A stretch of 64,000 bases of DNA from a virus: IMG/VR virus record IMGVR_UViG_3300022220_000003, positions 1-64,000 of that record, one strand, 5' to 3'. The notes beneath the pieces are model-generated. The model was not told where the DNA came from. It saw only the letters and a program-made list of their open reading frames with translations, and searched no databases. Shown piece after piece: positions 26,368 through 63,243 of the stretch (positions within the stretch are counted from its first letter, which is position 1; each line of letters begins with the position of its first letter). The position numbers and the translations under genes are program-made.

Positions 26368-26408
26368 CAACGCGTCGCATTATCCACACAAGACACATAT
26401 AATAAGGT

Positions 26409-32263: not shown

Positions 32264-32279
32264 CCAAGGAGCCAACACC

Positions 32280-33486: not shown

Positions 33487-33505
33487 GAGTTTCATTGAGT
33501 GGCCT

Positions 33506-33521
33506 TGGCCCGCGGATTGCA
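33506..33521 (+). promoter_or_regulatory. sigma54-type promoter of the Fis-type HTH gene
   Basis: TGGCCCGCGGATTGCA; same box-to-ATG distance as the leaderless cassette genes. Confidence 0.55.
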
Positions 33522-33533
33522 AGGAGATCGGAT

Positions 33534-33776: not shown

Positions 33777-34411
33777 GCTCGGGCCTACTCCGGATTTTCG
33801 GTTTTCGCGCAAAGCCCCCGGCTCTAGCAGGCCGGGGGCGCCTATGCTAGGGTGGAGCCGGCCCCCGCGTCTCAATTCATGGTGATCAACCGCCCGCGGT
33901 AGCCTAAGCCATTGCCAACGAACGTTGATCGGGGTGTGGGGGCCACCAAATAGGTCAGGCATTTTCTCTTGTGAAAGTCCATTGATTTCGGTGTAGTGTG
34001 GCGCGCTATGTCGATAGACGATCAGCAATTCATACGGATTCCTGAGCCCCATATCGGCTGGGATACGGGGCTACTGCTGCGGGTGGTGGCTGGGGAGCTC
34101 CGCGGGGCGGAGCTCCGCCGCGAGGTGGATTATATCCACGCGGTGGAGCGGGTCTCGGTGGACATTTCGCAGCAACTAGTGAGGACGGCGCAAGGGTCGG
34201 TGAGGTGGGCGTTGATCGATCTCGTGGTCTCGGGCCTACGACGGCGTTTGCTCGAGCTCTCGAGCCGGCCGGCGGGGCCGTTGCCTCCTCGGGGTTGGCC
34301 TTGCGCTTAAATGAAAAAGTCCAATGATTCCAAGAGGTAACGCCATTTGGGGGTGCTGGTGGGGGTTTGGGCTTAAATAATGTGGGCGGTCTAGTTTGGC
34401 GCGGAGCCCGG

Positions 34412-34792
34412 TTAATCCTGTTGGTTGCGGTCGCGGTCTCGGTCTAGGTCGCGGTCGCGGTCGCGGTCGTTTGGTCTCGATTTGTTCCGTATCCGGGCCA
34501 GGAGTGGTCCGGTCTCGTTTTCGGGCGGGGTTTCGAGCGGTGGGAGGTGGTCTCGTATGCCCGGGCGCCTTGGGCCACTGTAGCGGCCGGTATTCATGCG
34601 TTCAAATGGCCAAATCGAGTAGGCCTGGCCCGTGTCGGACTCGGCGAGGTCTGGGGTTACTTTCTCGAGGGTGTGGGGCCTCGTTTTGCACTGGCATACC
34701 GGGCAACGGATCTTGGTGGTCACGAGGTGGCACCGGTGGCACGTAGGGGCCGTGAAATAGGATCCGATCGTGGTGTTGACGGGGCTCGGCAT
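34412..34792 (-). CDS. Hypothetical zinc-ribbon protein with RD-repeat tail
   Basis: CHRC..CPVC motifs; DRDRDRDLDRDRDR tail. Confidence 0.4.
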   Translation of the reverse strand: MPSPVNTTIGSYFTAPTCHRCHLVTTKIRCPVCQCKTRPHTLEKVTPDLAESDTGQAYSIWPFERMNTGRYSGPRRPGIRDHLPPLETPPENETGPLLARIRNKSRPNDRDRDRDLDRDRDRNQQD

Positions 34793-35469
34793 ACTGCACC
34801 TCGAGGGGTTGATTGGGGGCAGCTTATCACGGGCTCGGGTGGAGGTTTACTGGCATGGTGTGACGTCACGATGTGTCAGGTTGTTGTGTATGCATACACG
34901 ATGCCAAAAAATAATGTTCTGGGTTATTGGGGGGTTAGGTGGAGGGTATGGCGGGCTTTGTCAGGCTGTTTGGATGATGTGGTGCGTCATTGAGGTGGGG
35001 TTGGCGGTTTGGGGTTATTTAGGTGGGTTGTTGTCGATTTGGTTGATTGAAAAAGTGGTGTGTTTGTAGGGGTTTACAAGGGGGGCTTGACGTGACTTGT
35101 CAACGTTTTTCGAGGCGTAACGATTACAGGTAGTTAGCTACTTATGTAAGTGGTTATGGAAGTGGTGGGATGTGTCGAGTTGTGACAGGTGGCGGTGTAA
35201 GTCGGTGTAATCGTTGCGGTATTGGTATGGGAGGGCGTGGGGGGTGATTGGGTGTCTCGATTTGTGGACAGTGTTGCGGTTCCGAGTGTCTTGATTTGTG
35301 GACAGGGGTGGCGAAATTTCGCCAGGGGGGTTTTGGGGGTTTTGAGGGGGTGGGGTGAGGGATTGAGTTAGGGGGTGGGTTTGCGGCGGTTTTTGGGGCC
35401 TTAGGGGGCTTGTCACGTGGTGGTGTAGGGTGGTGGGGAGGTGTTTCGGTTGGTGGGCACGGCGGGAGA

Positions 35470-35551
35470 TGTGCACCATTTTGGAGCAGTTGGTGAGGGG
35501 TGTGCACCATTTTGGAGCAGGTGGGGTGAAATGTGCACCATTTTGGAGCAG
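35470..35551. promoter_or_regulatory. Triple NtrC-type enhancer box array
   Basis: TGTGCACCATTTTGGAGCAG at 35470, 35501 and 35532 (31-bp period); core is one mismatch from TGCACCA-N3-TGGTGCA. Confidence 0.6.
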
Positions 35552-35843
35552 TTACAGGTTGGTGAGGTTGAGGGTATAAGGTTTTGTTATAGGTGGGTAG
35601 TGTTTTTGGGCGGTTTACTTATGGGTTTTGGGGGGTTGGGGGTTGTTTGTGGGCGGCCCGCGGCGGGGTGGACGCGACCGGCCTCGGGCCGGGCCTGGTG
35701 CTGCGGTGTAGGCCCCGCCCGCACCTCCGCACCGCTCCGCCCCTAAGCCCCGTCCTGTGCAGCTCTCGAAGAGCTCCCCGGCCTCGATCTCGGTTCCCAG
35801 TGGTTCGTCCCTATGGGAGCTCGAGCTCGGCGAGCCGTGCGAC

Positions 35844-36191
35844 CTAACGAGGGCCAACACCGTACACACGGCGGTCGAGGGCGATCCGCAGCTCGGCATG
35901 GACGCGTTTGGCAACCTCAAACTTGGTGGCCGCGTCGTTGAGCTCGGCGTTAGTCTCGCCGCCCATGAACATGGCCCACAAGCTACCAACGCCCCCGGTG
36001 GCGTCTGCGATAGCTCGCTTACGCTCGGCCGCCTCCTCAACCTCGGCCGCGGCCTCGGCGATGGCCTTGGCGAGCTCGGCACGATAGATAAGCTCGGCGC
36101 TACGGTCGGTGCCCGCGGCGGCCCGGTAGGCGGCCTGGGTGTTCTCGACGACGGTGGCGAGGGCGGCGGCGGTGGTAATAGTCTTGGTCAT
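35844..36191 (-). CDS. Ala-rich helical hypothetical protein
   Basis: GAGGA RBS; MTKTITTAAALAT... Confidence 0.55.
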   Translation of the reverse strand: MTKTITTAAALATVVENTQAAYRAAAGTDRSAELIYRAELAKAIAEAAAEVEEAAERKRAIADATGGVGSLWAMFMGGETNAELNDAATKFEVAKRVHAELRIALDRRVYGVGPR

Positions 36192-36202
36192 GGTCTCGAT
36201 CC

Positions 36203-36334
36203 TCAGAGCACCACCGCGGCGGCGGCCTCGTTGCGGGCGGCGAGCTTGGGGCGGCGGGTGCCCTCGCCACCGACAACCAAGACCACAATCGCGACCACCG
36301 CGATAACTGCCTTGATTGTCTTGTTGCGTGTCAT
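36203..36334 (-). CDS. Leaderless 43-aa single-TM peptide (E-left; not in the ORF track)
   Basis: MTRNKTIKAVIAVVAIVVLVVGGEG...; ATG abuts the palindrome. Confidence 0.55.
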   Translation of the reverse strand: MTRNKTIKAVIAVVAIVVLVVGGEGTRRPKLAARNEAAAAVVL

Positions 36335-36762
36335 GCATACTTAGTATACAACAACCGTGCCAGAGCTCGGGGGTGGCACGGCGGGTGCAACTCGAGGAGG
36401 GCGACACAATATCAAGGGGTTACGGGCCGAGAGCTCCCCGCCGAGCTCCCCGAGGGCCGTGTTTAGCGTGTAGGGCCAATACCTCTATGACTTAGGTGTC
36501 ATAGTTGAGATTAGGGGCTAACTACTCGTAATGAGGGCGAAAATGCCAATTGGTACTAGACTACTATGGCAATCATGTCATAGTTGAGGATTGGGCTAAC
36601 TGCACGTAATAGCGAAAGAATCCTAGGTTAGACCGATTTACTATGGCATCTATGTCATAGCTATGATGCTCTGCGTTATCAAGGTGATTGGCCTAAGTGC
36701 TTGATATTGTGTTGAGAGCTCCTCGCCACGGTATTGGCATCAGGGTTGCATACTAAGTATGC
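36335..36762. promoter_or_regulatory. Bidirectional sigma54 enhancer cassette E
   Basis: TGGCACGGTTGTTGTA (-, 36347-36362) and TGGCATCAGGGTTGCA (+, 36735-36750); extra inward box at 36374-36389; palindromes at 36485, 36564, 36641; perfect IHF sites at 36410-36422 and 36694-36706. Confidence 0.8.
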
Positions 36763-37134
36763 ATGAGCACAACGAGAGGAAACGAGACAATGAACGCAAT
36801 CACCACCGAGATCAAGTTTGCCAAGGCTGAGATGGCCGCGATTAACTTCCAAGGTGCAGGCCCCGAGCTTGGACGACGTTTTTGTCACCTCCGCCGGTTG
36901 GTTAAGCTGCTCAAGGAGCTCGATCGGCTCAACGGGTTGGGACTCGCCGAGCTCGTCACGGTTGAATACGAGTCCGAGGACGTCCCTAGCACATGTGTTG
37001 TTTTTTGGGCGAACACTGATGCCACGGCCGATATCGTGGGCAAACGCTCGGGCCAAGAAGTTGCGCGGCTTTCATCGCGTGAATTCTTTATCGAGCTCTC
37101 GTTGGCCCCCGGGCGTATGCCTGGTTTCTTTTAG
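36763..37134 (+). CDS. Hypothetical early protein (E-right), paralogue of 29708-30058
   Basis: VEYESEDVP motif; leaderless ATG, with an alternative RBS-led ATG at 36790. Confidence 0.65.
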   Translation: MSTTRGNETMNAITTEIKFAKAEMAAINFQGAGPELGRRFCHLRRLVKLLKELDRLNGLGLAELVTVEYESEDVPSTCVVFWANTDATADIVGKRSGQEVARLSSREFFIELSLAPGRMPGFF

Positions 37135-37450
37135 GCCAGCCAAACCCCAACGGCCGAGACTGCACAAAAGTGGCCGTTGGCCTCGGAGGGGCTCGAGGGA
37201 TCTCCAGGGGTTGCGGCGAGAGCTGCGGGCCGATCACAGGACGTCAACAGCCACTTTCCTCGAGCTCTGGCGCGGGAGCTGAGCTCGGCGAGCTCTGGGG
37301 AGGTAAGCGCGGGGGATCTTTTGTCCCACACCCCCCACTGGCAAAAAAACTGCGAAAATAGTTTTTTCCGAGGTACTGGCTCCCCCACCCACAAAACGCG
37401 ACCAAAACCCACCCCCACTTATGTATACTTAGTGTACACACCATAGGGCC

Positions 37451-37596
37451 ACCACCTGGTCACCTGGCACACCACCTGGTCGCCTGGCACACCACCTGGT
37501 CACCTGGCACACCACCTGGTCGCCTGGCACACCACCTGGTCACCTGGCACACCACCTGGTCGCCTGGCACACCACCTGGTCGCCTGGCACACCACC
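37451..37596. repeat. 7 x 20-bp tandem repeat (iteron-like)
   Basis: ACCACCTGGTCRCCTGGCAC x7 plus a partial copy. Confidence 0.9.
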
Positions 37597-37712
37597 GCCG
37601 CCACCGCCGCCTAGTCAACCTCACCGGACGATCGTGGGGCGGGCAAAAACAACAACTTTTGAAGGGAGGTCGCCAAGGGGGGCAAAAACAAGGTGCAGCG
37701 GTAAACCTAGTG

Positions 37713-38120
37713 TCAGGCGGCCGACTGCTCGAGGCCCACCGCGTCCACAAACGCGGCAAGGTTGGCCTCGGTGGTGTTGGACGGCTGCCAAGTATGCCCG
37801 AGCAGGTCCACCAAGGCTCGGAGGGATGCGGCGATGTTAGGTTCACCTCGCCGAGCTCCCCACAACCAAAGGGCCCGCGTCCGAGGTGAGGCCTTAAACG
37901 TTGGAATCCTTACATATTTTGAGTACACCCGAACGCCGTTCCAAGTCTTGGCCCGCGGGTCGGACGGTTTGGACACCGCATCGGCTGTTTTGGGGTCACC
38001 GCAACACTCTAAAATCATTGATAAAAGCAGGTGGCACGCGTCGTCACAGCTCTCGATACCGTGCGCGTGCCCCCATTGTGCCAAGGTTTTAAATTGCTGG
38101 TCTGTCAATCTCATAATCAT
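37713..38120 (-). CDS. Hypothetical protein divergent from the primase gene (possible DNA binder)
   Basis: MRLTDQQFKTLAQW, an RHH-like start. Confidence 0.4.
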   Translation of the reverse strand: MIMRLTDQQFKTLAQWGHAHGIESCDDACHLLLSMILECCGDPKTADAVSKPSDPRAKTWNGVRVYSKYVRIPTFKASPRTRALWLWGARRGEPNIAASLRALVDLLGHTWQPSNTTEANLAAFVDAVGLEQSAA

Positions 38121-38159
38121 ATCAAGTAATTAGCTCATTTCTGGAGACCAAGTCAAGGG

Positions 38160-38370
38160 TGGCACGCTGTCACACGATCTACTCCTTTATGGAACAACAT
38201 ATATATGCACCGGTGAACCTACAGTTGGTAAGTCAACCACATGAGCTTCACCGGTGCATATATCTGTTATAAGTAAAAGTATAGAACAATAGGCCACGCG
38301 TGCCAGGTGTGACACAACATTTATTCAAAACGTAAAATAAAACAGGCTGTCACGCGGTGTCACGCGTGTT
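38160..38370. other. Putative replication origin
   Basis: AT-rich; 17-bp inverted repeat 38201-38217/38247-38263; four TGTCAC copies; directly upstream of the primase-helicase. Confidence 0.45.
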
Positions 38371-38450
38371 TTGGTCCTGTGGATCCGTATTGCGTTATTC
38401 CCAACAGTTGGCCTAGTGTCCTTGCAGCTCAAAACCTCGGGGGTGATTGA

Positions 38451-40931
38451 GTGCCAAGGGACCTAACCCTGCTCGTGTGGGGTGACATCAAATCGGGTGA
38501 TCCCAACCAAGGTAACCTGGTGACTGCACCTTGGGTTGACTGGGTTAGCGTGCTATCCACCCACGTACGCAGGTCAACCAAAGGGGGTCCGTGCGTTGTC
38601 TGCGGTCACATCCCCAAAGGTAAACCCCGTTTGCAAATCCACGTCGAGGCCACCGACACGGTGTGCCTTGATATCGATAAGGGTACCACCGAGGAGATCG
38701 GCGAGATCCTCGAGGCCTTTGCCCCGTATGAATACGTGGCCTATACGAGCTTTAGCCATGCTCGATATCAGCTCGGTACCAAGGACACCCCACCGGCCCC
38801 CGGTGAGCCGACACAAACCAAGCTGCGGGTGTTGCTACCCCTAGCCCGTCGAGTAAGTGCCAAAGAATATGAGGGGGTTTGGCCGGTGATCCAGCAGTTG
38901 GCCAAGCACCCAATCGACAAGGCAATCAAGGCTCTCAACCAAGGGTACTATTTACCGAGCGCCAGGGTCGGGGCCCCGACCCTGGCCCACCACAACAAAA
39001 CCGGCCGGTGGCTCGACCCTGACAACCTCTTGCAGCTCTCGGACACCCCCGCCGAGACCTCCACCGAGCTCCCCACCGTCGAGGTTTTGGGCCGGGTCGA
39101 GACAATTATCCGCAAGCTCGCCAAAATGATACGCTCGCACCCCCTCAAGGCGGCGGCCAATGCCTTGATCAACGGCGAGCCCCTGGACTTCGGTGATGGT
39201 CGCCACGATACGATTATCCGGTTGACGGGTTGGATCGCGTTCAAAACCGAGAACAAACCTCTGCACCCAAGCGTAATCGAGGCCTTGTTCCAACGGTCGA
39301 TTGACGCAATGCGTCTTGATCGACCTCATGACATGGCATCGGTGACCATCGACGCCGCCACCGCAGCCTACGAAACCGCAATCGCCAAGGCGATTGAGAT
39401 CAAGGAGGCCGAGCGTAAGGAGGCCCAAAGTCATTACGCCGGCCCGGAGTCACCCGAGTGGCCCAAAGAAACCCTCGAGCGGTGCGCCGAGGCTCAAGAA
39501 TCCACCGTCGAGCAACTCGCGTTTGTTGTGGTGCGAGACCGGGCGCACTACATCCTACAACCGGACACCTATTTTTGCGGTCCGTTCACTGAAAAGGACG
39601 CGTTTATTGAAATCATTCAAGCTTTGGGGCGATCCCCGGTGGAGCTTTACGAGGTCACCAACTCAGGCAACTATAAACCAAGGCCATTTTTTGAGCTGAT
39701 ACGCCGATATGGCAGGGTAGCTCAACAAGTGGTCGCAAACCTCGCAACCCAACGGACCTATTACGATCGCGAGCACCGCACGATCCATGAGGCCGTTTGC
39801 CCTCGCCGCACCTTCGAGCCGGTTCACAACCCAAAAATAGACCATTGGTTGCGCCTATTCGCGGGCACGCCTGCCAATTACGAGAAGCTCCTCGATTGGA
39901 TGGCCTGTTGCCCCGATCTTAACAAGTTACTTTGCGCCCTCACCTTGGCGGGAGCTCCTGGCACCGGTAAAACCTTGTTTGCCCAAGGCATGGCCAGCCT
40001 ATGGGCCGAGGGTGGAGCGGCGGCGAGCCCCGAGGTGATCCTCGGTAACTTTAACGAGGACCTAACCCGATGCCCCCTCGTATTCGCCGATGAGACCCTG
40101 CCGAAAACCTACCGGTGGGAGTCGGTGACAACCAAGCTACGGGCCGAGATTGCCTCCTTGGTGCGCACCCTCAACCGCAAGTATTACGCCCCCTTAACCC
40201 TACAAGGGAGCCTCCGTTTTATCCTGGCGACCAACAACCCGATGATTCTCGCCAGCAACATCAGCACCGCGGCGGATCTCAACGCGGTGGCGGTGCGATT
40301 TCTCTACCTCGAGACCGGGGCCGAGGCCGAACAGTACTTGCTCACCCTGGACCACGAGACAAAGGACGGCTGGCGTATACACCAAATCGCGGCTCACGCC
40401 CTTTGGCTCCAACAAAACCGAGCGGTGACCCCCGCGGGCCGTTTTTGGGTCACCGGCGATCTCGAAAAAATGCACCGCCTACTCGTGACCTCATCGGATT
40501 GGAATAGTTGGGTTTGCGAGTGGATCGTCAAGGGGCTGCTAGACGGCTATCGCAAGGCGGAGCAAAACCAAGACACGGTGGGCCGGGTGATAGTCCAGGA
40601 GGGCCACCTCTTTGTCAATATCAGTGCAGTCGCAGATGGTTGGCCCATATACACCAACTATCCCAATATCCCCCCCGACCCGCGCAAGATCGCCACGGCC
40701 CTCCGCTCGATCTCCCTGCAACCCAAGGCCGTCCAAGTTCGCACCCCCGGCGGGACGCGGCACCGCTACTTTGACATTGACCTAAACCACCTCGTGGCGT
40801 GGGCGGATGAGAAGGGGATCTGCGGAGCACCCGAGATCGAGCTCGCAATCCACCAAGGAATCACCGAGCGGCCCAAGATCGTCAATCTGAACGAGCACCG
40901 GAACAAAGGAAAGGATCAGCCACAGCAATGA
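38451..40931 (+). CDS. Primase-helicase (AEP-like N-terminus plus P-loop NTPase)
   Basis: CLDID, YTSFSH and KLRVLLPL primase motifs; GAPGTGKT Walker A; FADE Walker B; ATNN. Confidence 0.8.
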   Translation: MPRDLTLLVWGDIKSGDPNQGNLVTAPWVDWVSVLSTHVRRSTKGGPCVVCGHIPKGKPRLQIHVEATDTVCLDIDKGTTEEIGEILEAFAPYEYVAYTSFSHARYQLGTKDTPPAPGEPTQTKLRVLLPLARRVSAKEYEGVWPVIQQLAKHPIDKAIKALNQGYYLPSARVGAPTLAHHNKTGRWLDPDNLLQLSDTPAETSTELPTVEVLGRVETIIRKLAKMIRSHPLKAAANALINGEPLDFGDGRHDTIIRLTGWIAFKTENKPLHPSVIEALFQRSIDAMRLDRPHDMASVTIDAATAAYETAIAKAIEIKEAERKEAQSHYAGPESPEWPKETLERCAEAQESTVEQLAFVVVRDRAHYILQPDTYFCGPFTEKDAFIEIIQALGRSPVELYEVTNSGNYKPRPFFELIRRYGRVAQQVVANLATQRTYYDREHRTIHEAVCPRRTFEPVHNPKIDHWLRLFAGTPANYEKLLDWMACCPDLNKLLCALTLAGAPGTGKTLFAQGMASLWAEGGAAASPEVILGNFNEDLTRCPLVFADETLPKTYRWESVTTKLRAEIASLVRTLNRKYYAPLTLQGSLRFILATNNPMILASNISTAADLNAVAVRFLYLETGAEAEQYLLTLDHETKDGWRIHQIAAHALWLQQNRAVTPAGRFWVTGDLEKMHRLLVTSSDWNSWVCEWIVKGLLDGYRKAEQNQDTVGRVIVQEGHLFVNISAVADGWPIYTNYPNIPPDPRKIATALRSISLQPKAVQVRTPGGTRHRYFDIDLNHLVAWADEKGICGAPEIELAIHQGITERPKIVNLNEHRNKGKDQPQQ

Positions 40932-40971
40932 CAACGCAAACAACGGGGCCCGTCCCTACGGGGCGGATCGA

Positions 40972-41574
40972 ATGAATCAATCCATAAACCAATGGCTTCG
41001 CCTATTGGCGGGCAATGACGACAATCACCAAAAACTCCTCGATTGGTTGGCTTGTGCCCCCAATCTGGACACGCCTTTATGTGGCCTGATTTTTGCGGGC
41101 CCACCGAAAACGAGCAAGGGTCTGTTTTTGGCGTTTGTGGCGGGGTTGCGGGAAATTTGGAACGGCTGGCGCAGTATGCCCAATAATGACACCCCTATCC
41201 TGGTCTACCGAGACGATCCCAAGGCCCTGAGCACTATCGACCCCATAACCCTAGATGCCTACCCCCGGCGGCGTTTCGTGGTCGCCACCAACACCCCCGA
41301 GATCATGTTGGCCCATGTTCACGAGCGGACACCGTTAGAACAGCTCGAGCGGTGGTTTTTGTACATGGAACCCACCGAGGAGGCGGCCGAGCTCCTCGAG
41401 GGATTCGAAGATTATCACCCGGTGTGGGGTGTGCGCCATATCACGACAGCTATCGAGACCTTGCACCAGTATCACAAGGTGGAGCGGGCCGGGCATCTAT
41501 GGGTTGAGGGTACCCCGGGCGCCATGCGCCACCTCACAACCCAACCACCTAAAGCCGTAGGGGTGACCCCATGA
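40972..41574 (+). CDS. Truncated, degenerate paralogue of the helicase domain
   Basis: Collinear with the previous gene: WLRL.AG, KLLDW.AC.P.L, ATN, FLY.E, WV.G; Walker A altered to GPPKTSKG. Confidence 0.7.
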   Translation: MNQSINQWLRLLAGNDDNHQKLLDWLACAPNLDTPLCGLIFAGPPKTSKGLFLAFVAGLREIWNGWRSMPNNDTPILVYRDDPKALSTIDPITLDAYPRRRFVVATNTPEIMLAHVHERTPLEQLERWFLYMEPTEEAAELLEGFEDYHPVWGVRHITTAIETLHQYHKVERAGHLWVEGTPGAMRHLTTQPPKAVGVTP

Positions 41575-42194
41575 GAATCATCGGACCGACCTACACGATA
41601 TTGACCCCGATCAAAGGGGAACGGATCCTAGCGGCAATCGAGGCCGCGGGGCGTACGTGTTACAAATCGCAAGAAAAGATCACACCCACGTCCTCCCAGA
41701 GGTTTGTCCAAATGATCCTCGAGCGGGGCCACGAATCGGTGATCGAGCACGAATCCGTTTCGGTGCGGATCACTTGTGACCGAGGGGTGTCTCACGAGAT
41801 CGTACGCCATCGCCTAGCGTCTTACTCCCAAGAGTCGACTCGCTATTGCAACTACGCAAGCGCCAAATTTGGTCAGGAGATCTCGGTGATTGAGCCCCCT
41901 GGACTCGGGGAGCTAGCGCGGGCGCATTGGGTCCAGGCCGTCAAAATGTGCGAGGGGCAATATTTGGAGTTGTTGGCCCTCGGGACACCACCGGAGATCG
42001 CTCGGTCGGTGTTGCCTAACGCCCTTGCCACCGAGATTGTGATGACCGCAAACCTCCGCGAATGGCGCCACTTTTTCAGGCTGCGGACGGCCAAGGCCGC
42101 ACACCCTCAGATGAGGGAGATCGCGCGGCCGATGCTCGCCGAGTTTCGTCAGCGTATACCTGTGATTTTTGACACCGTGGGGGTGACCCAATGA
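41571..42194 (+). CDS. thyX: FAD-dependent thymidylate synthase
   Basis: GHESVIEH, RHRLASYSQESTRY and NLREWRHFFRLR. Confidence 0.95.
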   Translation: MRIIGPTYTILTPIKGERILAAIEAAGRTCYKSQEKITPTSSQRFVQMILERGHESVIEHESVSVRITCDRGVSHEIVRHRLASYSQESTRYCNYASAKFGQEISVIEPPGLGELARAHWVQAVKMCEGQYLELLALGTPPEIARSVLPNALATEIVMTANLREWRHFFRLRTAKAAHPQMREIARPMLAEFRQRIPVIFDTVGVTQ

Positions 42195-42585
42195 AAACCT
42201 CAATCCCAAATCCACCCCACGGAGCGGGCCCAAAGGATCCACCACAATGAAAGGTTTAGCCATGGGTTTGCTCACGGTCGTGGGCCTCGTGACCTCGTTT
42301 ATCAATCCGCCGGTGGGGCTCATGCTCTTGACGATCGCGGGTTGTTGGTTTTGGTGGGAGCACGGATAATGAAAGTGAAGATCGGAAACACGGTTTATGA
42401 CTCCAACGATCAGCCTATCTTGTTGGTCCTAGACAACCACGAAAAGAGCATGATCTCGAATATGCTCCCCCAGTGTTACAAATATTGTGCTTGTCCGCAC
42501 GGTACCCCGGTGGCCGAGATCGAGCGGTTTATGGGTATCGATCACCTGAGCAAGCCCACCCCTGCGGGGCGGGCGGGGTAAATAG

Positions 42586-43065
42586 ATGCCTAGAAAACAC
42601 GATCGCTGCACCGGACATTGCTGCGAAAAATTCACCCTCCGCCTATCCCCCGAGGAGCTCGCGGCGAGCTATCGGCATTGGCTCAATCGAGACGCCGAGC
42701 CGCTCGAAATGAACGGGACTAGGACTCCACCAATATACCGCGATATACATCTGATTGCGCCCATGGTGCGGTATCTCGGGTTCACCTACGATCACCCACC
42801 GCAGATCAATCCGTCCGATAACAGGCTACTAGGCAAGCCAAAAACCAAACAACATTACTACACGTGTAAGCACTTCAACCCCAAAACGCGGGATTGCACG
42901 ATTTACGAGATCCGGCCGGCGATGTGTCGGAGCTATCCGGACTCGGGGTTGTGCAACTACGCCAAGTGTACCTGGAAGGCCAAGCGGGCCAAAAAGCAGA
43001 CCGCGGCGGAGCTGCGCCGACGCAAAAAGGCAATCATGGCCAAGGTCAAGGAGCCCACCGAATGA
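42586..43065 (+). CDS. YkgJ-family cysteine cluster protein
   Basis: CTGHCC...CKHF...CTIYEIRPAMCRSYP. Confidence 0.75.
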   Translation: MPRKHDRCTGHCCEKFTLRLSPEELAASYRHWLNRDAEPLEMNGTRTPPIYRDIHLIAPMVRYLGFTYDHPPQINPSDNRLLGKPKTKQHYYTCKHFNPKTRDCTIYEIRPAMCRSYPDSGLCNYAKCTWKAKRAKKQTAAELRRRKKAIMAKVKEPTE

Positions 43066-43472
43066 CCGCCAACAAGTGGGAGGCCAAGCGCAAGGCCCAG
43101 TTTCTAAACCGGTGTATCCATTATCCGAGGTCATGGGAGGATACCCATTGCGCGGTAGGTGTGGATCTTGACGCCATATGGGACAAATCCGAGCGGCCCT
43201 ACCGGCGGATCTGCTACTCCCCCAAGGCCGCGATTCCCTGTGATAAACGAGAGCTCCCCACCGAGGCCGATTATGAGGCCTACCGTCAAGAGCTAGAAAA
43301 CAGTCTCACCCGCATGGTCAAAATTGCCGAGGCTATTGGGGCCACCGGACAGAAGCAAGGCCGCATCGATTGCCCTTGTTGTAACGGCGTAGTTGGGTTT
43401 TCAATCGCTAGCAATGGCCACATGGCCGCGGCATGCTCAACGGATGGGTGTGCCAAGTGGAGTGAATAAGCC

Positions 43473-44663
43473 ATGGCAACTGAACCTGAGATCATTGCAT
43501 CATTAACCGCGGGCATGTCTAGTGCCTACGGCGAGCCCGAGGCCACCTATGAGGAGTTTGCAGGCGCGATCGCCCCTGCCATTGTATTGGGTGGCAGTGG
43601 TGCCGCTGGCGGCGACGTAACCGGGCCCGCGAGCTCGACTACCAACGGGGTGGTGGTTTTTGATGGTACATCGGGCAAGGTGATCAAAGGAGCCACCGCG
43701 GCGGTGGATTTCGGTGGTCAGAATATCACCAACGTGGGATCGATCGCTGGTCTCGTTCCAACGAGCCGCCAAATCAACAACGGCACCGGTATCAGTGGAG
43801 GTGGAGATCTCACAGCCGATCGGACCCTATCTGTCAACCAAGGAGCCCTAGATCCTTCCAATATGGACAGCACGGGCGCCACCGATGGCCAATTGGCCAC
43901 GGCCGATGGCCTCGGTGGTATAGCCTGGGAGGACGCCGCCGCTGGCGGCGGCGGCGACGTGTCCGGGCCCGGGTCAAGTACTGACCATGGCTTGGCGCGC
44001 TATCACGGAGCGACCGGCAAAATTATACAGAATAGCGGTGTTACGCTTAGCGACGGCAACGCCATGGTGTTCCCGTCGTCAGGGTCCATTAGCTGCCGTG
44101 GGTCCGGCAGTTACTCGGAAAAATTCGGCGTTGGCGCAGTCGCGAATGGAACTTCAGCAACCGCAATCGGTAGGCTTGCCGAGGCGACGCATAATGATAC
44201 GACAGTGGTTGGCGCACAAGCTGACGGCAAGGCGGCAAAGGCCTGCGCGTTCGGCAAGGGTGCATTGGTCAATACCGGCGCAATCAATTCGATTGCCATT
44301 GGTTACGGCACAGAAGCGAAAGGAAGTGCAACCAACTGCGTTGCGGTTGGTTATTATGCCGAAGCGTCGACCAACGTCGATCACAGTGGTGCGCTTGGTA
44401 CCAATGCAAAAGCTGCCCATGACCAGTCTTGGGCCTTCGGTCGCGCGGCGATCACGACTGCAACAAATCGCGTCACGTTCGGGCAAATCGGTACCGGTTA
44501 CTTGCTCGAGCTGCAGTGCGGCGACGGCTTTGGCTGCTTCGGCGTAACACCCCCTGGATCACAGCCGGCCAAGATCAGCGACCCCACCGATTTGGCGTCA
44601 TGCGTCACAGCCATTACCGCGATAATTGACGTTTTGGAGGGTGCGGGGCTCTCAAGTACATAA
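43473..44663 (+). CDS. Fibre/adhesin-like structural protein with YadA-head-like repeats
   Basis: GDVTGPASST repeats; 14-aa A.A.G..A.A beta-roll repeats. Confidence 0.65.
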   Translation: MATEPEIIASLTAGMSSAYGEPEATYEEFAGAIAPAIVLGGSGAAGGDVTGPASSTTNGVVVFDGTSGKVIKGATAAVDFGGQNITNVGSIAGLVPTSRQINNGTGISGGGDLTADRTLSVNQGALDPSNMDSTGATDGQLATADGLGGIAWEDAAAGGGGDVSGPGSSTDHGLARYHGATGKIIQNSGVTLSDGNAMVFPSSGSISCRGSGSYSEKFGVGAVANGTSATAIGRLAEATHNDTTVVGAQADGKAAKACAFGKGALVNTGAINSIAIGYGTEAKGSATNCVAVGYYAEASTNVDHSGALGTNAKAAHDQSWAFGRAAITTATNRVTFGQIGTGYLLELQCGDGFGCFGVTPPGSQPAKISDPTDLASCVTAITAIIDVLEGAGLSST

Positions 44664-44941
44664 AGGCGTAAAGGGTGCCAATTACATTCGAGTAATAATC
44701 GAGGAGATACCATGATCAAGGCAATCGAAGATCCGTCGAGTTTGCGCAAGCTCTACAGTGACTTGCAGGTGACCGGGGCCGAGGCCGCTTTGGCCAAAGC
44801 GCAATTAGACCTATACATCACGCGAGTCTACAAGGAGCACGACATGAGCCCCGAGACCCACGCGGTATGCTTGTGGTGTGGCAAGTTTGTGCCCCGTGAG
44901 GCGGGTTGCGGTTGTCTCAAAAAGGATAAACCAAAGTGAGT

Positions 44942-44957
44942 TGGCACGTGCATTGCA
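44942..44957 (+). promoter_or_regulatory. sigma54-type promoter heading the replication operon (class II)
   Basis: TGGCACGTGCATTGCA, a full consensus match, followed by ACCTTATAAT as in the other class II copies. Confidence 0.65.
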
Positions 44958-56395: not shown

Positions 56396-57862
56396 ATGCC
56401 CGAGCCGATCCCAATGCTCCCCAGCGGTGACGCCTTGGCCGACGCCGGGCGGGATGCATTGATCGACTATTACGACCATTGCAAATCGATGGCCGGCGAG
56501 TGGGTCTATCGCCAGGTGGTGGATAACTGCCGGGCGGATATCTTGGCGGCGATCCTCGGGTATGAGGTGCAGCCGTTTCATTTGGCCCTGATGGTGTTTC
56601 AAATGCTGCACCCCGACAATTTGCAGCTCTGTTTTCGGGGTGCAGGCAAAACCACCGTTTGCACGGTGACCCGGGCGATCTTTATGCTGATCCGCAACCG
56701 GGACTTGCGGATCCTCATAGCCTCGAAAACCAAGGGCAACGCCGAGAGCATGCTCAAGGAGATCAAGGGACACCTCGAGGAAAACCAGCGACTGATCGAG
56801 GTCTTTGGGTTGTTTTACGATCCGGCGGTGGTGACCAAATGGGATAACACCGAGATCGAGATCCTCGGGCGCAGCCGCAAGACCAAAGAGAGCTCGATCA
56901 TAGCAATCGGTGTTTCGGGTGCCTTGGCCTCCAAACACGTTGACGTGATCTTGGCCGATGACTTGGTGGACGAAGAAAACGCCCGTACCAAGTATATGCG
57001 AGACCGCGTCAAGCAGTGGTATTATCAGATCTTGGATCCGGTCCTCGAGCCACCCGAGCCCGGGTTTTTGCACCGCGGTGAGTTTCACCGGTTGGGGACC
57101 AGATATCATTTTGATGACCTATACGGGCATCTGATGTCGAATGAGCTCAAGGAGCACCACCAAGTGATCCCCGCGCTCGACTCAAACGAGCGCAGCCCGT
57201 GGCCCGAAAAATTTCCGCCCGATTGGTTCAAAGCCAAAAAGGAAAAATCAGGTACGATTATATTCAACGCTCAATACCAGTGCGATACCGAGGCAATGAA
57301 GGGCGAGATCTTCCAATATGACGATTGCCAACAGGTTTCGGCTGACGACGTGCCCGCGGGTCTCAAGGTCTACATGGGTGTTGACTTGGCGATCACCGAG
57401 CAGGAACAAAACGACATGTTTTGCATAGTGGTGGGAGGTCTAGACCAGGCCGAAAACTGGTATGTGATTGACTATTTCGAGGGCCACCTCCGATTTGCAG
57501 CCCAAACCGCGGCGATCAAGCGCTACTACAAAAAACACGATCCTATCCGGGCGGCCATTGAGACCAATAGCTACCAGGCGGCCCAATACCAGACCCTCAA
57601 AGATGAGGATCAGAGCTTGCGGCTTATGCCGGTGCACACCGAGAAAGACAAGATCACCAGAGCTTGGAAGGTCTCACCGAGGTTTGAAAATAAGCAGATG
57701 TTTTTCGTCAAGGGGGGCAATATCCACAAGCTGATCGAGGCGATCGTTTTATTCCCCTCGCATCGATACAAGGACCCGTTTGACGCCTTGGACATGATGC
57801 TCAGGGCCAGCAAAGTGCGTCGACGCCGCAAGCGGCGACAACGTGAACCGGGGATCATCTGA
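56396..57862 (+). CDS. terL: Terminase large subunit
   Basis: FRGAGKTT Walker A; ILADDLVD Walker B; GTRYH..DLYG; GVDLA nuclease motif; D..DA. Confidence 0.9.
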   Translation: MPEPIPMLPSGDALADAGRDALIDYYDHCKSMAGEWVYRQVVDNCRADILAAILGYEVQPFHLALMVFQMLHPDNLQLCFRGAGKTTVCTVTRAIFMLIRNRDLRILIASKTKGNAESMLKEIKGHLEENQRLIEVFGLFYDPAVVTKWDNTEIEILGRSRKTKESSIIAIGVSGALASKHVDVILADDLVDEENARTKYMRDRVKQWYYQILDPVLEPPEPGFLHRGEFHRLGTRYHFDDLYGHLMSNELKEHHQVIPALDSNERSPWPEKFPPDWFKAKKEKSGTIIFNAQYQCDTEAMKGEIFQYDDCQQVSADDVPAGLKVYMGVDLAITEQEQNDMFCIVVGGLDQAENWYVIDYFEGHLRFAAQTAAIKRYYKKHDPIRAAIETNSYQAAQYQTLKDEDQSLRLMPVHTEKDKITRAWKVSPRFENKQMFFVKGGNIHKLIEAIVLFPSHRYKDPFDALDMMLRASKVRRRRKRRQREPGII

Positions 57863-59652
57863 TGACAGACAGCACCACCACCGCCACCCGAGTGAGCAAC
57901 GCCACCAACAAGCGGGCCCTGCGGGCCGTTGTGATCGGCATGCGCAAGCGTGCGGCCGAGGTGCCGCACCCTAAAAACCTCGAGGAGGGGCGGCCCGAGC
58001 CGGGGCAATCCAAGGCCCTCACCGAGGACCCGTTCGAGGCTTTGACGGCCGAGGGTCGGTTGATTGAACCACCGTTTGACCTGCTCACCTTGGCCATGTT
58101 GCCCGAGCATTCGAGCGAGCTCGGCCAATGCGTCGAGGCCTACGAGGTTAATATCGAGGGGTTTGGGTTTCGGTTTGTGCCGCGGATCCGATCCAATGTA
58201 GATATGGCCAAGCTCGATCCGGTGTTGCGTGACGCAGTGCAGCTCGAAAAAACCGAGCTCGAAAATTTTTTTGCCTACTGCTCTGGAAGGCTCTCGTGGG
58301 TTGAGACGCGGCGGCGGGTGCGAAAGGACCTCGAAACTACAGGCAACGGGTATCTAGAGGTGGTCCGCAACGCGGCGGGCAAGATCCAAGGGCTCAACCA
58401 CCTACCAAGTTATCAAATGCGCCTTGGTGGCCTCGATCAAGAGGCGGTCAAGGTGGCATTGCCGATTCACGAGCTCCAAACCGATGGGTCTATCAGGATT
58501 GTGCGGGTGCCCTCGTGGGAGCGGTTTCGGCGGTTTGCGCAATCACGATCTTTGTTGCTACGCCATGCCACCCATGTGGGCCGATACGCGATCCGGTGGT
58601 TCAAGGAATTTGGGGATCCACGGGTGTATGACTACGAATCGGGCGAGGAGGCCAAGGGCGAGGATATCGCCAAGCTCCCACCCGAGCGGCGGGCCAACGA
58701 GTTGATCCATTTCAAGCTTTACAGCCCCCGCAGCCCGTACGGCCTACCTCGGACGATTGGCAATCTATTGAGTATCTTTGGCGCGAGAGCGGCCGAGGAG
58801 ATCAACTACACCACGTTTCGCAACAACAACATACCATCAATGTTGCTCTTGGTATCCAATGGCCAGCTCACCGAGGGATCAATTGATCGGATCGAGAGCT
58901 TTGTCGAATCCCAGATCCAGGGGTCGGACAACTACAGCAAATTTTTACTCGTTGAGGCCGAGGGGCTCGGCGAGGAGGGCGAGGACACGGGCCACGTCAA
59001 GGTCGAGGTTGAGCGGCTTGTTGAGCAACAACACAAAGACGCCCTGTTCCAAAACTACTCGGGCAACGCAGACAGCCGGATCCGGCGGGCCTTCCGATTG
59101 CCACCGATCCTTGTGGGCCGGGCCGATGATTACACCCGGGCCACGGCGGACACCTCGAGGCGATTGGCAGACGAGCAGATCTTTGCTCCCGAGCGCAATA
59201 TCCACGACGATACGGTCAACCGGTTGTTATTTCCCGACATGGGGATCGTGTACCACAAGTACAAGAGCAACACCCCCAACACCACTGACAACGCCGAGCT
59301 AGTCAAGATCCTCGGCGGGGCTGAGAAAACCGGTGGCATGACCCCAAGGATCGCCCGGTTGTTGCTCGAGGATATTCTTGGCCAAGACTTGCCAGGGTTC
59401 CCGGCCGAGTTTGCAGACAAGGCCGATATGCCGTTTAGCCTGCTCATGGCCGAGGCGGTGCAAAACAAGGCAGACCCGGCGGAGCCGGGGCAACAGGTAA
59501 CGGCGATCAAGGCCTTGGACTTTATCGAAAAACTGACCGGTGGGGAGCTCGGCGAAATCGAGGAGGCCGAGCTCGCCAAAACCGCGGTGCAAATCAATCG
59601 GCACTTCGAGAAACGATGGCGCCGAGAGGTCAAGGCTAGTCTAGCGGGATAA
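57862..59652 (+). CDS. Portal protein
   Basis: GNGYLEVVRN, NELIHF..YSP.S.YGLP, AFRLPPILVG; follows TerL. Confidence 0.88.
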   Translation: MTDSTTTATRVSNATNKRALRAVVIGMRKRAAEVPHPKNLEEGRPEPGQSKALTEDPFEALTAEGRLIEPPFDLLTLAMLPEHSSELGQCVEAYEVNIEGFGFRFVPRIRSNVDMAKLDPVLRDAVQLEKTELENFFAYCSGRLSWVETRRRVRKDLETTGNGYLEVVRNAAGKIQGLNHLPSYQMRLGGLDQEAVKVALPIHELQTDGSIRIVRVPSWERFRRFAQSRSLLLRHATHVGRYAIRWFKEFGDPRVYDYESGEEAKGEDIAKLPPERRANELIHFKLYSPRSPYGLPRTIGNLLSIFGARAAEEINYTTFRNNNIPSMLLLVSNGQLTEGSIDRIESFVESQIQGSDNYSKFLLVEAEGLGEEGEDTGHVKVEVERLVEQQHKDALFQNYSGNADSRIRRAFRLPPILVGRADDYTRATADTSRRLADEQIFAPERNIHDDTVNRLLFPDMGIVYHKYKSNTPNTTDNAELVKILGGAEKTGGMTPRIARLLLEDILGQDLPGFPAEFADKADMPFSLLMAEAVQNKADPAEPGQQVTAIKALDFIEKLTGGELGEIEEAELAKTAVQINRHFEKRWRREVKASLAG

Positions 59653-60672
59653 ATGAACATCGGGGCCCTGTTTGATCAGGTCCGAGCCACCGATCAAGCC
59701 GTGGCCAAGGCTCTCGGGATCTCGGAGGTGGCGCAAATTGCCCGGACCGAGACGCGCCTCCGTGAATACCTCTTGGCCGAGTGGCAGACCCGAGCCAACA
59801 AGGCGGCGGCCCAAGCCGCAACATTGACCCGCAAGGGGGCTACAGCTCGCCAAGTCAACGCAGCGGTGGCCATGGGTCTCAAACCGTGGGCCGAGGTGGT
59901 GGCCCCCCGTATGGATCGGGAGCTCGCCAAGGTCTACCGGTTGGCCAAGATCGCGGGATGGCGCAAAGCAACAGGCCAAACCAAGGCCCCGTTGACCTAC
60001 GATACCCCGAATTTTGAGCAGATGGCCAAGGCCGCACCCCGTGAGGGATTTGCGGTTTTGCCTACGTTTGACAAGCTTGACATTGACACGGTTGACGCCC
60101 TCACCGAGCAACAGATGTTTTGGCTCGGGGCTCACTACGAGGAAAACGTGGGGGCCACGATAGCTAGCACCGTGTCGGAGGTGATGGCCCAAGAGGGGCG
60201 AAATCGCCAAGTGGCCGCGGTTACGATGCGAGAGCGGCTCGCCGAGACCTTGGGCCAGGTGGTGACCCCGGCCGGGTGGCATGGGTCGGTGCGTCAATAC
60301 ATGGAAGGGGTGGCAGCCAATGCCGCCACCGTGGGCCGGGCCTATGGGCAAGTGGCCGCGTTCAACGAGGCCGGTGTAACACGCTACGAGATCGCAAATC
60401 CCACCGATGAGAGGACTTGTCCGGTTTGCTCGCATATGGACGGTAAAAACTTCACCGTCGAGCAGGCCAACCAACAGATCGCGGCGGAGCTCAAGGCCGA
60501 GAGCAGAGACGATATCAAGTCAACACACCCATGGTACAACTATAAAGAGCTAACGAGTATCAGCCTCAAGGCCGGCAATGTGAGCCCGCAAGACTCCGCG
60601 GCCCTCGCCAAGGCCGGTTTTCCCTTGCCGCCATTCCATTTCAGATGACGTTGCGCCGTTGACGTCAGTTGA
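59653..60672 (+). CDS. Head morphogenesis protein (Mu gpF / SPP1 gp7-like) with an in-frame TGA at 60646 in a conserved Cys position
   Basis: DERTCPVC and PPFHFR-TGA-RC; the family motif is PPxHxxCRC. Confidence 0.75.
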
Positions 60673-60687
60673 CGTCTAGGAGGCCCC

Positions 60688-63243
60688 ATGCAATTGAGCA
60701 CGACCCCAACCCGCAGGCGAGCTCGCCGAGCTCGTGTTGTCAAAACCGTGACCTCGCAAGACCTCGCCACAAGCGGCAAGCTCAAGGATGCGGGTTTGCC
60801 CGGTGGGAGTGGGATCACCGAGTTGTGGGGTCTAGCGGTGAGCAAAACGGCGGCGGCCGAGCTCTTGGTGGGCAAGATCAACACTGTCGCCAAAACGACC
60901 GATTTGGACCTATCAAAACGCACGATGGTGGTGCTCGCCGAGGGCCGGGCCCTCGGGGAGGTGCAGCTCGGCAAAAAGGTTGAGGCGAGGACGTGGGCAA
61001 TCAAATCGGCCAAGGTTTTTGACCGGCCCAAGCCCACCAACATACCGGCGGTGGCCAATGGTGTGGTTAAAGGGGTGCGCCTGCTCGAGCGGCTCAAGGC
61101 TACAGCAATAGAGGAACCGGTAACCAAGAGCCAGGCCAAAACCTACAATCCGCGGCCAGTGGTCGATTCGGTGCTCTTGGCGGACGTGCGGGCCTTAAAA
61201 GAGTGGGGCGAGGAGGTGGCTTTCAAAAAGGCGCTCACCGAGGTGGAGCGGCGGGGCTTGCAGCTCCCCCAGCTCGAGCTTGCCCCCGATACCGATCCCG
61301 AGATCTTGACGTCCACCGAGCTCTTGGAGGCCCACCGAGCGCTACATGTGGCCAAGGGGTGGAGCTCCGAGGACGCGATCAACGTGCATGCCCAGATAGT
61401 GGCCGAGCTCGCCGATCGCGGCATGCCTCACCCCGAGCCACCTCCGGGCCTTGATCAACGCTCCGAGCCGTTGGAGCCGGGCGAGGTCCAGATCACAAAA
61501 GCAGCGGCCGAGGTGGCCTTGGCCGAGCTCGTGGCCTCGGTCGAGCAATATCCGGTTTTGGTCCATAAACGTGTTGAGGGCCGGGCGGTGGTGGTGGCCA
61601 AGACCGGGGATCAAGTCAAAGTGGTCGGTGAGGATGGGACCGATCATACCGCGGAGGTGCCCGAGGTGGCCCGAGCGGTGGCAGCTCTCAAGGCCGAGGC
61701 GGTGGAGCTCGAGGGGGTGCTCGAGCCGTGGCACGGTGGCGAGGTGTTGCAGGTCCAAGATCTCGTTTATGCCGGCCGGGATCTTCGAGATTGGCCGGTA
61801 TCCAAGCGGCTCGAGCGATTGGCCGAGCTCGGTATCGAGCAGGCCACCGCGTCAACGCCGAGCCGGCGGATACCTGTTAACGAGCTCCCCACAATCGAGG
61901 CCACAGACGGCGAGGCTCTCGAGCGGGCGATCCGTGTCGTCAAATCCTTACCCGGGGCGGCGGGCGTGGTGGTGAAGCCCGCAACTTCTATTGACCCGGG
62001 CGAGTGGCTCGAGCTCGAGGCCGAGCCGGTGGCCAAGGTTGCGCTCTCGGGGCCGGTGCCTTTTGTGTGGCGTGGGTCCGAGATCTTGATCGGTACCCCC
62101 GGCGGGCGGAGGGTCGAGCGGTGGCAGCTCGAAGGGGAAGCGGCCGAGGCACAGATCGCCAAACGCCGGGCGCCAATGTCGTGGGGTGCACTGCGGGCCG
62201 AGTCCACCGAGCGAGGGGAGGCGGAGCTCGGGGCGGTCAAGCCGTGGTGCCGCGAGTATTTTTTGCGAGGTGAGCAGGCGGCCCACCGGTTGGTGGTCCG
62301 CAAAATGCAGATCGGCGAGCTACAAAAGGCGGTCCATTCGTACACCCAATGCATGGTTTGCCGAGCGGCCCCTGTAATTGACGTGTTGTGGGCCGATGGC
62401 CGCGGCCGAGCTTGGTTTTGCAAGGGGTGTTATCCCAAATGGATCCACAAGGGCGGAGGCGCCAAGACTCTCGAAGTGATTGGCACCAAGGCAATTATCG
62501 GTGGCCGAGCTCCCGCCAAGTATTCAGACCGCCACAACCGTGTCACAACCACCAAGGCCGCGAGCCCCCACGAGCTCGGCGAGTGGATTGTAATCCGTTC
62601 AAACGACCCCACGCCCATGGTGTTGCAGGCCGAATCAGTAACCAAGCGATGGATCCCACCGCTTGGTGTGTCAGCCTTGCCGCGATCTGTGGCCGAGCAA
62701 GTACCGCTTGATCTCGCCTATTGGCAAGCAGGTACTTTGGTGGAGGCCCGCGAGCTCCGTGATCAACTTGTGTCAAAGATTGACAAGGGGGAGGTTGAGA
62801 TCGATTACTCCGCGGCGTACACACCCAAGCCCGCGTCAGAACCTGTCACACAACCAACTACCGAGCCGGCGGAATTGTTTGTTTCCATTGCCAAAATTGA
62901 CACCGACCGGCAAATCGTGACAGGTATAGTCTTAGAACCGGGCGAGGTCGATGCTCAAAACGATACTATCACTGCCGAGGTTATCGAAAAAGCATCGATC
63001 AATTTTCTGTCCCGGTATAATTCCGAGACTCAACTAGGGTTTATGCACAAAATTTTTGGCGAGATCGGATTGCAGCTCGCCGCCAGTTGGGTAGCACTGA
63101 GTAACCAGACGCTTGGCGGCAAAAAGGTCAAGCGAGGCTCGTGGCTTATGAGCGTCAAGGTTGTGGACCCCAAGTTGTGGGCTCGCGTCAAAAAGGGCGA
63201 GTTTGCGGGGTTCTCGATCGGCGGTGTTGCAAAGGTGCGATAA
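60688..63243 (+). CDS. Multidomain protein: degenerate ATP-dependent ligase-like domain plus C-terminal XkdF-like prohead protease
   Basis: HKRVEG, LEG, QDLVY and GVVVK ligase-like motifs; GIVLEP..VDAQ.D, MH, GSW and GFSIGG protease motifs. Confidence 0.65.
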   Translation: MQLSTTPTRRRARRARVVKTVTSQDLATSGKLKDAGLPGGSGITELWGLAVSKTAAAELLVGKINTVAKTTDLDLSKRTMVVLAEGRALGEVQLGKKVEARTWAIKSAKVFDRPKPTNIPAVANGVVKGVRLLERLKATAIEEPVTKSQAKTYNPRPVVDSVLLADVRALKEWGEEVAFKKALTEVERRGLQLPQLELAPDTDPEILTSTELLEAHRALHVAKGWSSEDAINVHAQIVAELADRGMPHPEPPPGLDQRSEPLEPGEVQITKAAAEVALAELVASVEQYPVLVHKRVEGRAVVVAKTGDQVKVVGEDGTDHTAEVPEVARAVAALKAEAVELEGVLEPWHGGEVLQVQDLVYAGRDLRDWPVSKRLERLAELGIEQATASTPSRRIPVNELPTIEATDGEALERAIRVVKSLPGAAGVVVKPATSIDPGEWLELEAEPVAKVALSGPVPFVWRGSEILIGTPGGRRVERWQLEGEAAEAQIAKRRAPMSWGALRAESTERGEAELGAVKPWCREYFLRGEQAAHRLVVRKMQIGELQKAVHSYTQCMVCRAAPVIDVLWADGRGRAWFCKGCYPKWIHKGGGAKTLEVIGTKAIIGGRAPAKYSDRHNRVTTTKAASPHELGEWIVIRSNDPTPMVLQAESVTKRWIPPLGVSALPRSVAEQVPLDLAYWQAGTLVEARELRDQLVSKIDKGEVEIDYSAAYTPKPASEPVTQPTTEPAELFVSIAKIDTDRQIVTGIVLEPGEVDAQNDTITAEVIEKASINFLSRYNSETQLGFMHKIFGEIGLQLAASWVALSNQTLGGKKVKRGSWLMSVKVVDPKLWARVKKGEFAGFSIGGVAKVR

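Follow-up and report, generated by a model that had tools for sequence, protein, structure and literature searches.

A UGA codon at a conserved cysteine of phage MuF/gp7-like minor head proteins as a candidate site of host-dependent selenocysteine insertion

In the virus record IMGVR_UViG_3300022220_000003, of which we analyzed positions 1 to 64,000 (the whole 64,000-nucleotide stretch is called the window below), a gene for a minor head protein of the MuF/SPP1 gp7 type runs into an in-frame UGA where its relatives carry a conserved cysteine (Cys), and the question raised by this locus is whether that codon ends the protein or is decoded as selenocysteine (Sec). The record, an uncultured phage of 93,466 bp in IMG/VR (~92% complete, GC content 58.5%), encodes a MuF-like open reading frame (ORF) that spans 331 codons up to the first TGA (59653–60648) and would give 339 residues up to a second TGA if the first one is decoded. 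The codons CCG CCA TTC CAT TTC AGA (60628–60645), which encode PPFHFR, lead directly into the TGA at 60646–60648, and the frame past it, CGT TGC GCC GTT GAC GTC AGT, encodes RCAVDVS up to the second TGA. A preliminary description of this DNA had proposed that the first TGA is a Sec codon served by a hairpin downstream of it, and the frame, the coordinates and the hairpin geometry that it gave all prove exact on re-reading the sequence. From the comparative evidence presented below, we conclude that the UGA at codon 332 is probably decoded as Sec in a host-dependent manner. The elements concerned are:

59653–60672, + strand: gene for the MuF/SPP1 gp7-like minor head (head morphogenesis) protein, from the ORF list, the read-through translation and profile matches
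60418–60429, + strand: the CPVC Cys pair (C256, C259), partner of H329 (60637–60639) and codon 332, from alignment columns
60646–60648, + strand: in-frame TGA, codon 332, the candidate Sec codon, aligned with the first Cys of PPxHxxCRC
60661–60676, + strand: candidate bacterial Sec insertion sequence (SECIS) hairpin GACGUC-AGUU-GACGUC, whose 6-bp stem and 4-nt loop agree with the published model
60670–60672, + strand: true stop (TGA) of the read-through frame, from sequence and translation, where the hairpin loop meets the 3′ arm

The assignment to the MuF/gp7 family draws on profile matches, gene placement and motifs. The protein scores 41.5 bits against NCBIfam TIGR01641 (phageSPP1_gp7; cut-off 39.65) and matches the PHROG families of minor head or head morphogenesis proteins with E values of 2e-10 to 6e-8; its gene lies beside the portal gene in the head module, and it displays both the C-terminal PPxHxxCRC motif (PPFHFR-[UGA]-RC, residues 326–334) and an upstream C-x2-C (CPVC, residues 256–259). 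Against Pfam PF04233 (Phage_Mu_F), the truncated form scores 17.4 bits, and reading the TGA as Cys raises the score by 10 bits to 27.4 and lets the match run on to position 111 of the 112-position profile. The protein thus resembles phage Mu F (gp30) and Bacillus phage SPP1 gp7 in its domain match, in the location of its gene directly past that of the portal and in the PPxHxxCRC motif; it differs from them in that a UGA codon takes the place of the first motif Cys, in that its Pfam score lies just below the gathering cut-off (29.6 bits) even with read-through, and in that its subfamily has an insert of ~50 residues between the CxxC and HxxC elements.

In an alignment of 30 relatives, the TGA column coincides with the first Cys of the consensus ...LPPFHFRCRC.VD.., which, together with the gain in Pfam score on read-through, bears out the earlier claim that the TGA stands exactly at the conserved Cys of PPxHxxCRC. 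Across this alignment P326, H329 and C259 never vary and C256 hardly does; the second Cys of the CRC element is variable (C, T, S or D). The first-Cys position is a Gly in P0148 and is otherwise invariably Cys apart from the TGA forms. The 7 codons past the TGA are identical or near-identical to those of the Cys-bearing relatives and terminate at the same position; coding is therefore conserved on both sides of the UGA, a signal that is weak for this phage alone given its short 7-codon tail. The conserved residues form a constellation, C256-x2-C259...H329-x2-C332, which we predict to be either a metal-binding CCHC knuckle or a redox/nucleophilic center. In an AlphaFold (AF2) model with a predicted local distance difference test score of 87.7, C256 and C259 open a helix (257–262), and H329 and C332 lie just before the last strand (335–338). 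Foldseek and VIA-align searches with the predicted structure recovered only generic helical bundles, and a PDB sequence search recovered no related solved structure for the MuF-like protein.

Two further features of the MuF relatives touch this constellation and the region past it. Inteins occupy two sites, each of them exactly before one of the constellation cysteines: one precedes the first Cys of CRC (HFR/C...ISN/CRTTVDI in L038) and the other precedes C256 of CPVC (DERT/CF...). Such inteins are borne by L038:3001-5880 (+), L025:3001-4254, P0087, P0110, P0142, P0188 and P0200, and further by P0061, P0065, P0086, P0127, P0192, L042 and L043, and their homing exactly at both residues argues that both cysteines are functionally central. 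Long C-terminal extensions past CRC (up to 1279 residues in total) are seen in P0009, P0026, P0028, P0040, P0041, P0051 and many of P0060–P0200, an architecture in keeping with a role of MuF in carrying packaged effector domains; C-terminal effector extensions are often found in MuF proteins, which in many cases carry injected effectors (MuF fusions, PMC9503650).

The UGA of this phage is one of several at the same codon. A protein homolog search across 5.8 billion proteins yielded 54 homologs, five of which, along with four of their cluster mates, end exactly at ...H-F-R, making nine distinct sequences (P0002, which is the protein under study, P0003/56, P0005/57/58, P0021/59 and P0030), with the stop codon inferred rather than read for the truncated relatives available only from Logan (P0003, P0005, P0021, P0030 and their cluster mates). 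Among the homologs from this search we saw no protein cut short at its C-terminus anywhere else in the frame, and, these forms having been found at the protein level, their recurrence is free of search bias. The 331-residue product of P0002 is recorded in identical form from JGI/IMG, Logan and ENA on three contigs, which makes a single sequencing error unlikely. On a maximum-likelihood tree of 59 proteins of the subfamily, the distribution of stop and Cys states requires five changes, four of them forced by well-supported branches, and the Cys forms P0004 and P0006 (81–84% identical) are interleaved with the clade of this phage.

At the DNA level, the codon at this position is TGC or TGT in ~58 related IMG/VR loci and TGA in L027, an 83-kb phage with 15 family-like codons past the TGA (RCTVDVSVEAGSWEI). 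Pattern scans with other variants of the MuF motif uncovered five more IMG/VR phages with TGA at the equivalent Cys (L209, L210, L301, L340 and L345); together with L027 their GC contents range from 33 to 66%, and in all six of these DNA-verified phages the PF04233 match spans the TGA. Two viral scans with the subfamily pattern returned only the contig of L027 again, a third with a variant pattern returned no MuF, and a search of 50%-identity representatives recovered full-length or intein-bearing forms only. The independent alternations number at least 4–5 in the subfamily, with five more lineages elsewhere in the family. In total, at least nine other phage lineages share with this phage a UGA, seen or inferred, at the position of this Cys. 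The alternation of TGA and TGY codons among relatives that the preliminary description had called for is therefore present in several independent lineages; a situation in which every relative has Cys and lacks a hairpin, which would have spoken against a Sec codon, does not obtain, as TGA-bearing relatives exist and are accompanied by hairpins. In L210 and L301, the frame continues for 105 and 104 codons past the TGA, respectively, and the tails show homology to each other (30% identity over 103 residues, E 2e-14), so that the UGA must be read through at least there.

The hairpins themselves were assessed with the consensus bacterial SECIS model of Zhang and Gladyshev, as summarized in PMC13188914 (Fig 2A), which specifies a loop of 3–9 nt, a stem of at least 4 bp, a G in the first two loop bases, a distance of 16–37 nt from UGA to loop and a minimum free energy of -7.5 kcal/mol or lower. 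We compared the seven DNA-verified TGA forms (this phage, L027, L209, L210, L301, L340 and L345) with 149 Cys controls, comprising 40 subfamily members and 109 HPNCRC-type forms. With the published spacing, all seven TGA forms conform to the model, as against 32 of the 149 Cys forms (9/40 and 23/109; Fisher p 4e-5); for a spacing of 16–22 nt, a window chosen after the TGA set had been seen, the counts are 7/7 and 18/149 (Fisher p 1.2e-6). Restricting the controls to those matched for a gene end within 16 codons leaves a similarly sharp separation (TGA 5/5, Cys 4/49, p 4e-5), and simpler criteria of a perfect stem give 5/7 for TGA and 4/149 for Cys forms. The loops of the seven TGA forms, at +17 to +21, read AGUU, GGUC, GAAGUU, GUAAA, GUUU, GGUCUA and GGU, and their stems are built from unrelated sequences. 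Shuffled versions of the individual TGA sequences pass the model in 2–21% of trials, and no hairpin enrichment was found in windows before or after the target position. The SECIS-type hairpin postulated for this phage hence accompanies every DNA-verified TGA form, versus about one-fifth of the Cys forms, which pass the loose published model by chance. That TGA recurs at this codon in lineage after lineage, with a hairpin at this spacing, goes far beyond what chance would produce.

In the phage under study, the arms of the hairpin are GACGTC at 60661–60666 and GACGTC at 60671–60676, enclosing the loop AGTT at 60667–60670; the hairpin starts 12 nt and its loop 18 nt past the TGA, and positions 2 and 3 of the loop are G and U. 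The bare stem-loop has a folding energy of -7.5 kcal/mol, which falls to -13.4 kcal/mol with a lower GCC/GGC extension, wherein GCC at 60655–57 pairs with a GGC in the Shine-Dalgarno region of the gene that follows:

60679–60690, + strand: Shine-Dalgarno GGAGG and ATG (60688) of the next head gene, the former beginning 3 nt past the hairpin

The 61-nt fold has a z-score of -1.65, which makes the hairpin alone weak evidence, and when the sequence is shuffled 300 times, 26 of the shuffled versions likewise conform to the SECIS model. Rfam produced no match at the hairpin and none anywhere in the window at gathering thresholds. In the nearest Cys relative, L001, whose protein is 84% identical, an 8-bp version of the hairpin is found at L001:1803-1870 (+) with the loop CACU, devoid of G; this stem may represent a SECIS in decay or, alternatively, a pre-existing structure on which a SECIS could evolve. 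Another close Cys relative, L002, has no hairpin, and both L001 and L002 fail the SECIS model.

Recoding of UGA in this phage, if it occurs, is a local matter, as TGA is its commonest ordinary stop and terminates 46 of 105 long ORFs. The neighboring genes of the head module, identified from the ORF list and Pfam, follow the order large terminase, portal, MuF/gp7-like ORF and protease-domain head protein, and the terminase, portal and protease genes are all open under table 11:

56396–57862, + strand: large terminase gene (PF17289, 54.6 bits)
57862–59652, + strand: portal gene (PF04860, 58.4 bits), with the MuF-like gene directly 3′ of it
60688–63243, + strand: gene for an 851-residue head protein with a C-terminal XkdF-type S78 protease domain (PF14550, 91.8 bits)

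The genome as a whole thus uses TGA as a stop, and we reject a genome-wide reassignment of this codon. A different condition is seen in the low-GC phages L212, L213, L215 and L221–L225, whose MuF genes contain many in-frame stops, one of them at the second-Cys position; these are apparently products of genome-wide stop-codon reassignment, which differs from the single UGA in the present phage (the same appears to apply across L212–L215).

We propose that SelB and tRNA-Sec supplied by the host would decode the UGA at 60646–60648 as Sec, with the hairpin at 60661–60676 guiding the insertion as a bacterial SECIS that SelB is predicted to recognize. Starting 12 nt past the UGA, the hairpin would be positioned at the mRNA entrance of a ribosome whose A site contains the UGA. 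Decoding would yield a protein of 339 residues in which Sec replaces the last member of the C256-x2-C259...H329-x2-C332 constellation, and ribosomes that terminate instead would release a 331-residue protein devoid of residue 332 and the final β-strand. With no Sec machinery encoded by the phage, the yield of the full-length protein would depend on the selenium status and sel genes of the host, potentially with a regulatory meaning. Sec decoding accounts for what is directly observed, namely a UGA that always falls on the Cys codon, its recurrent alternation with Cys, the continuity of coding past the UGA in relatives and the SECIS-type hairpin associated with it at a fixed distance. The alternation, the hairpin and the non-recoded genome are all favorable to the interpretation offered in the preliminary description, and it is from them that we infer it. 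With somewhat more reserve, we lean toward the broader view that the MuF/gp7 minor head proteins are a phage selenoprotein family, in which many unrelated phages swap an essential Cys for host-decoded Sec.

Several observations weigh against Sec decoding, in addition to the chance passes among the Cys forms, the choice of the narrower spacing window and the unread stops of the Logan-only relatives mentioned above. The read-through frame of this phage adds only 7 codons beyond the UGA. The hairpin is a minimal one of 6 bp and -7.5 kcal/mol, runs across the true stop and ends 3 nt before the ribosome-binding site of the next gene, and could accordingly be an element for coupling or stability. 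Its stem is shared by the Cys relative L001, for which reason it is not diagnostic by itself. Searches for tRNA-Sec, SelA, SelB and SelD in this phage, and for tRNA-Sec in five other TGA-phage records, found none. Searches of cultured phages provided neither a close relative nor a host, and the exact pattern P-x-[FY]-H-x-R-TGA-R-C-x-x-D produced 53 loci in 185,579 species genomes, all chance matches with no MuF prophage, and 68 loci in metagenome contigs, again chance matches only and with no MuF. Known bacterial selenoproteins are mostly oxidoreductases, and we know of no earlier case in which a structural protein of the virion carries Sec at what is probably a metal site. The MuF gene of L216:3-1535 (-) presents a variant of the problem: its TGA stands at the second CRC cysteine (PRHPNCR-TGA-TWIPYE), with at least 226 in-frame codons past it, in a locus where TGA is otherwise a normal stop; the 10-bp hairpin that follows has its loop only 12 nt past the TGA, outside the SECIS spacing, and a simple SECIS reading does not explain this case. 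No relatives of the post-TGA tails of L210, L301 and L216 were found among the comparison loci collected.

The case of L216 is accommodated by programmed leaky termination without selenium, whereby a near-cognate tRNA (that for Trp, or that for Cys, which would restore the family residue) reads a weak UGA at some frequency, so that truncated and full-length MuF are made in a fixed proportion, and the hairpin stimulates read-through or pausing. Such a process explains the recurrence and the post-UGA coding conservation as well as Sec does, would cover a read-through TGA at the second Cys with a hairpin lacking SECIS spacing, as in L216, and is consistent with the failure to find Sec machinery in any phage searched. 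Six of the seven TGA forms have a C directly past the UGA and one has an A, and UGA-C is the weakest stop context in studies of stop contexts in Escherichia coli; however, this C simply reflects the conserved Arg codon, which is present in the Cys forms too. Leaky termination predicts neither that the UGA should fall on the Cys codon in every case nor that a hairpin with an early loop G should lie at 17–21 nt in 7/7 forms, features that are specific to SelB-type recoding, and to our knowledge no hairpin-stimulated UGA read-through is known in bacteria. We consider it improbable as the explanation of these genes.

We regard genuine termination in this phage as likewise unlikely, be it that the 331-residue protein is functional or that the gene is tolerated or decaying, with RCAVDVS and the hairpin as leftovers or with the hairpin serving the next gene. 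The loss of just 8 residues in this phage, the status of TGA as its normal stop, the single-base change that separates TGY from TGA the overlap of the hairpin with the stop and ribosome-binding region and the occurrence of the hairpin in the Cys relative L001 would all be compatible with it. Nevertheless, the stop has arisen at the same codon in at least 4–5 independent events with no truncation seen elsewhere, and the Cys that would be lost is invariant but for the Gly in P0148 and is one at which inteins exactly home. Likewise, the frame past the TGA and the stop position in this phage match those of the Cys relatives, and L210 and L301 keep more than 100 homologous codons open past theirs. 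Very improbable, finally, are a sequencing or assembly error, against which stand the three sources and contigs of the identical 331-residue product and the eight further distinct relatives that end at the same residue, and a genome-wide reassignment of TGA, against which stand its ordinary use as a stop and the open head genes of this phage.

Under Sec decoding, the closest known counterparts are the bacterial selenoprotein genes with a SECIS element inside the ORF that SelB reads, whose prototype is fdhF of E. coli. As in these, the in-frame UGA aligns with a Cys of the homologs, a small hairpin with G followed by U or G at the start of a 3–9 nt loop lies 16–37 nt past the UGA (here 18), coding continues past the UGA, and Cys and Sec forms alternate among close relatives; the spacing in fdhF is the same 18 nt as in this phage. 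In contrast to the fdhF-type genes, the present gene belongs to a phage with neither sel genes nor tRNA-Sec, selenium insertion and the host machinery are predicted, the product is a virion or assembly protein as opposed to an oxidoreductase, and the true stop lies inside the hairpin, leaving the SECIS partly untranslated. Selenoproteins of eukaryotic viruses are represented by the glutathione peroxidase homologs of the molluscum contagiosum and fowlpox viruses, which similarly have a virus gene lean on the Sec machinery of the host; however, those are captured host redox enzymes with a eukaryotic SECIS in the 3′ untranslated region, whereas here a phage structural protein is coupled to a SECIS of bacterial type. 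In phage Q-beta, the A1 protein is the coat protein extended by a UGA read as Trp, with no SECIS-like hairpin; it shares with the present case a phage virion protein made by decoding UGA and differs from it in that the UGA of the head protein gene occupies a conserved Cys position, with a SECIS-type hairpin downstream. Our literature searches found no published description of a phage selenoprotein or of a selenium-containing virion protein of this kind, and the words phage and virus are absent from a 2026 review of prokaryotic selenoproteomes (PMC13188914).

If correct, Sec decoding would mean that bacterial viruses use Sec recoding of the bacterial type, in the absence of viral Sec machinery, in a structural or injected protein as opposed to a redox enzyme, and would extend the known selenoproteome to phages. 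Sec would then sit in the probable CCHC metal/redox center of a packaged, injected protein, phage production would be tied to the selenium status of the host, and phage assembly or infectivity would depend on host selenium metabolism and SelB. Gene callers would then be calling these head proteins systematically too short and, in certain lineages, losing their C-terminal effector domains. The TGA forms would also offer a collection of naturally occurring, very short SECIS elements that stem from many hosts and are suited to the study and engineering of recognition by SelB.

Two minor features of the genome bear on the host and on the tRNA complement of the phage. Ten exact copies of a sigma-54-type promoter box are present, against 0.18 expected by chance:

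24995–44957: ten sigma-54-type promoter boxes of the exact pattern TGGCAY-N5-KTGCA (e.g., 25305–25320, 29578–29593 and 31585–31600)

Presumably, these boxes imply a host with RpoN, and hence one outside Actinomycetota; they are silent on its sel genes. A tRNA-like gene at 26298–26367 (+) was considered as a tRNA-Sec or suppressor tRNA and rejected, as it has neither a UCA anticodon nor a long variable arm. Its best Rfam match is tRNA-Sec (RF01852), at 26.8 bits versus a gathering score of 47, and ARAGORN assigns it no identity (a two-base "anticodon"). Its acceptor stem has 7 bp and its D stem 5 bp, the latter closed by a loop of 4 nt; the anticodon loop, UUCGCA, is 6 nt long, and the variable loop is short. 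The gene is possibly an aberrant tRNA or an attachment-site remnant.
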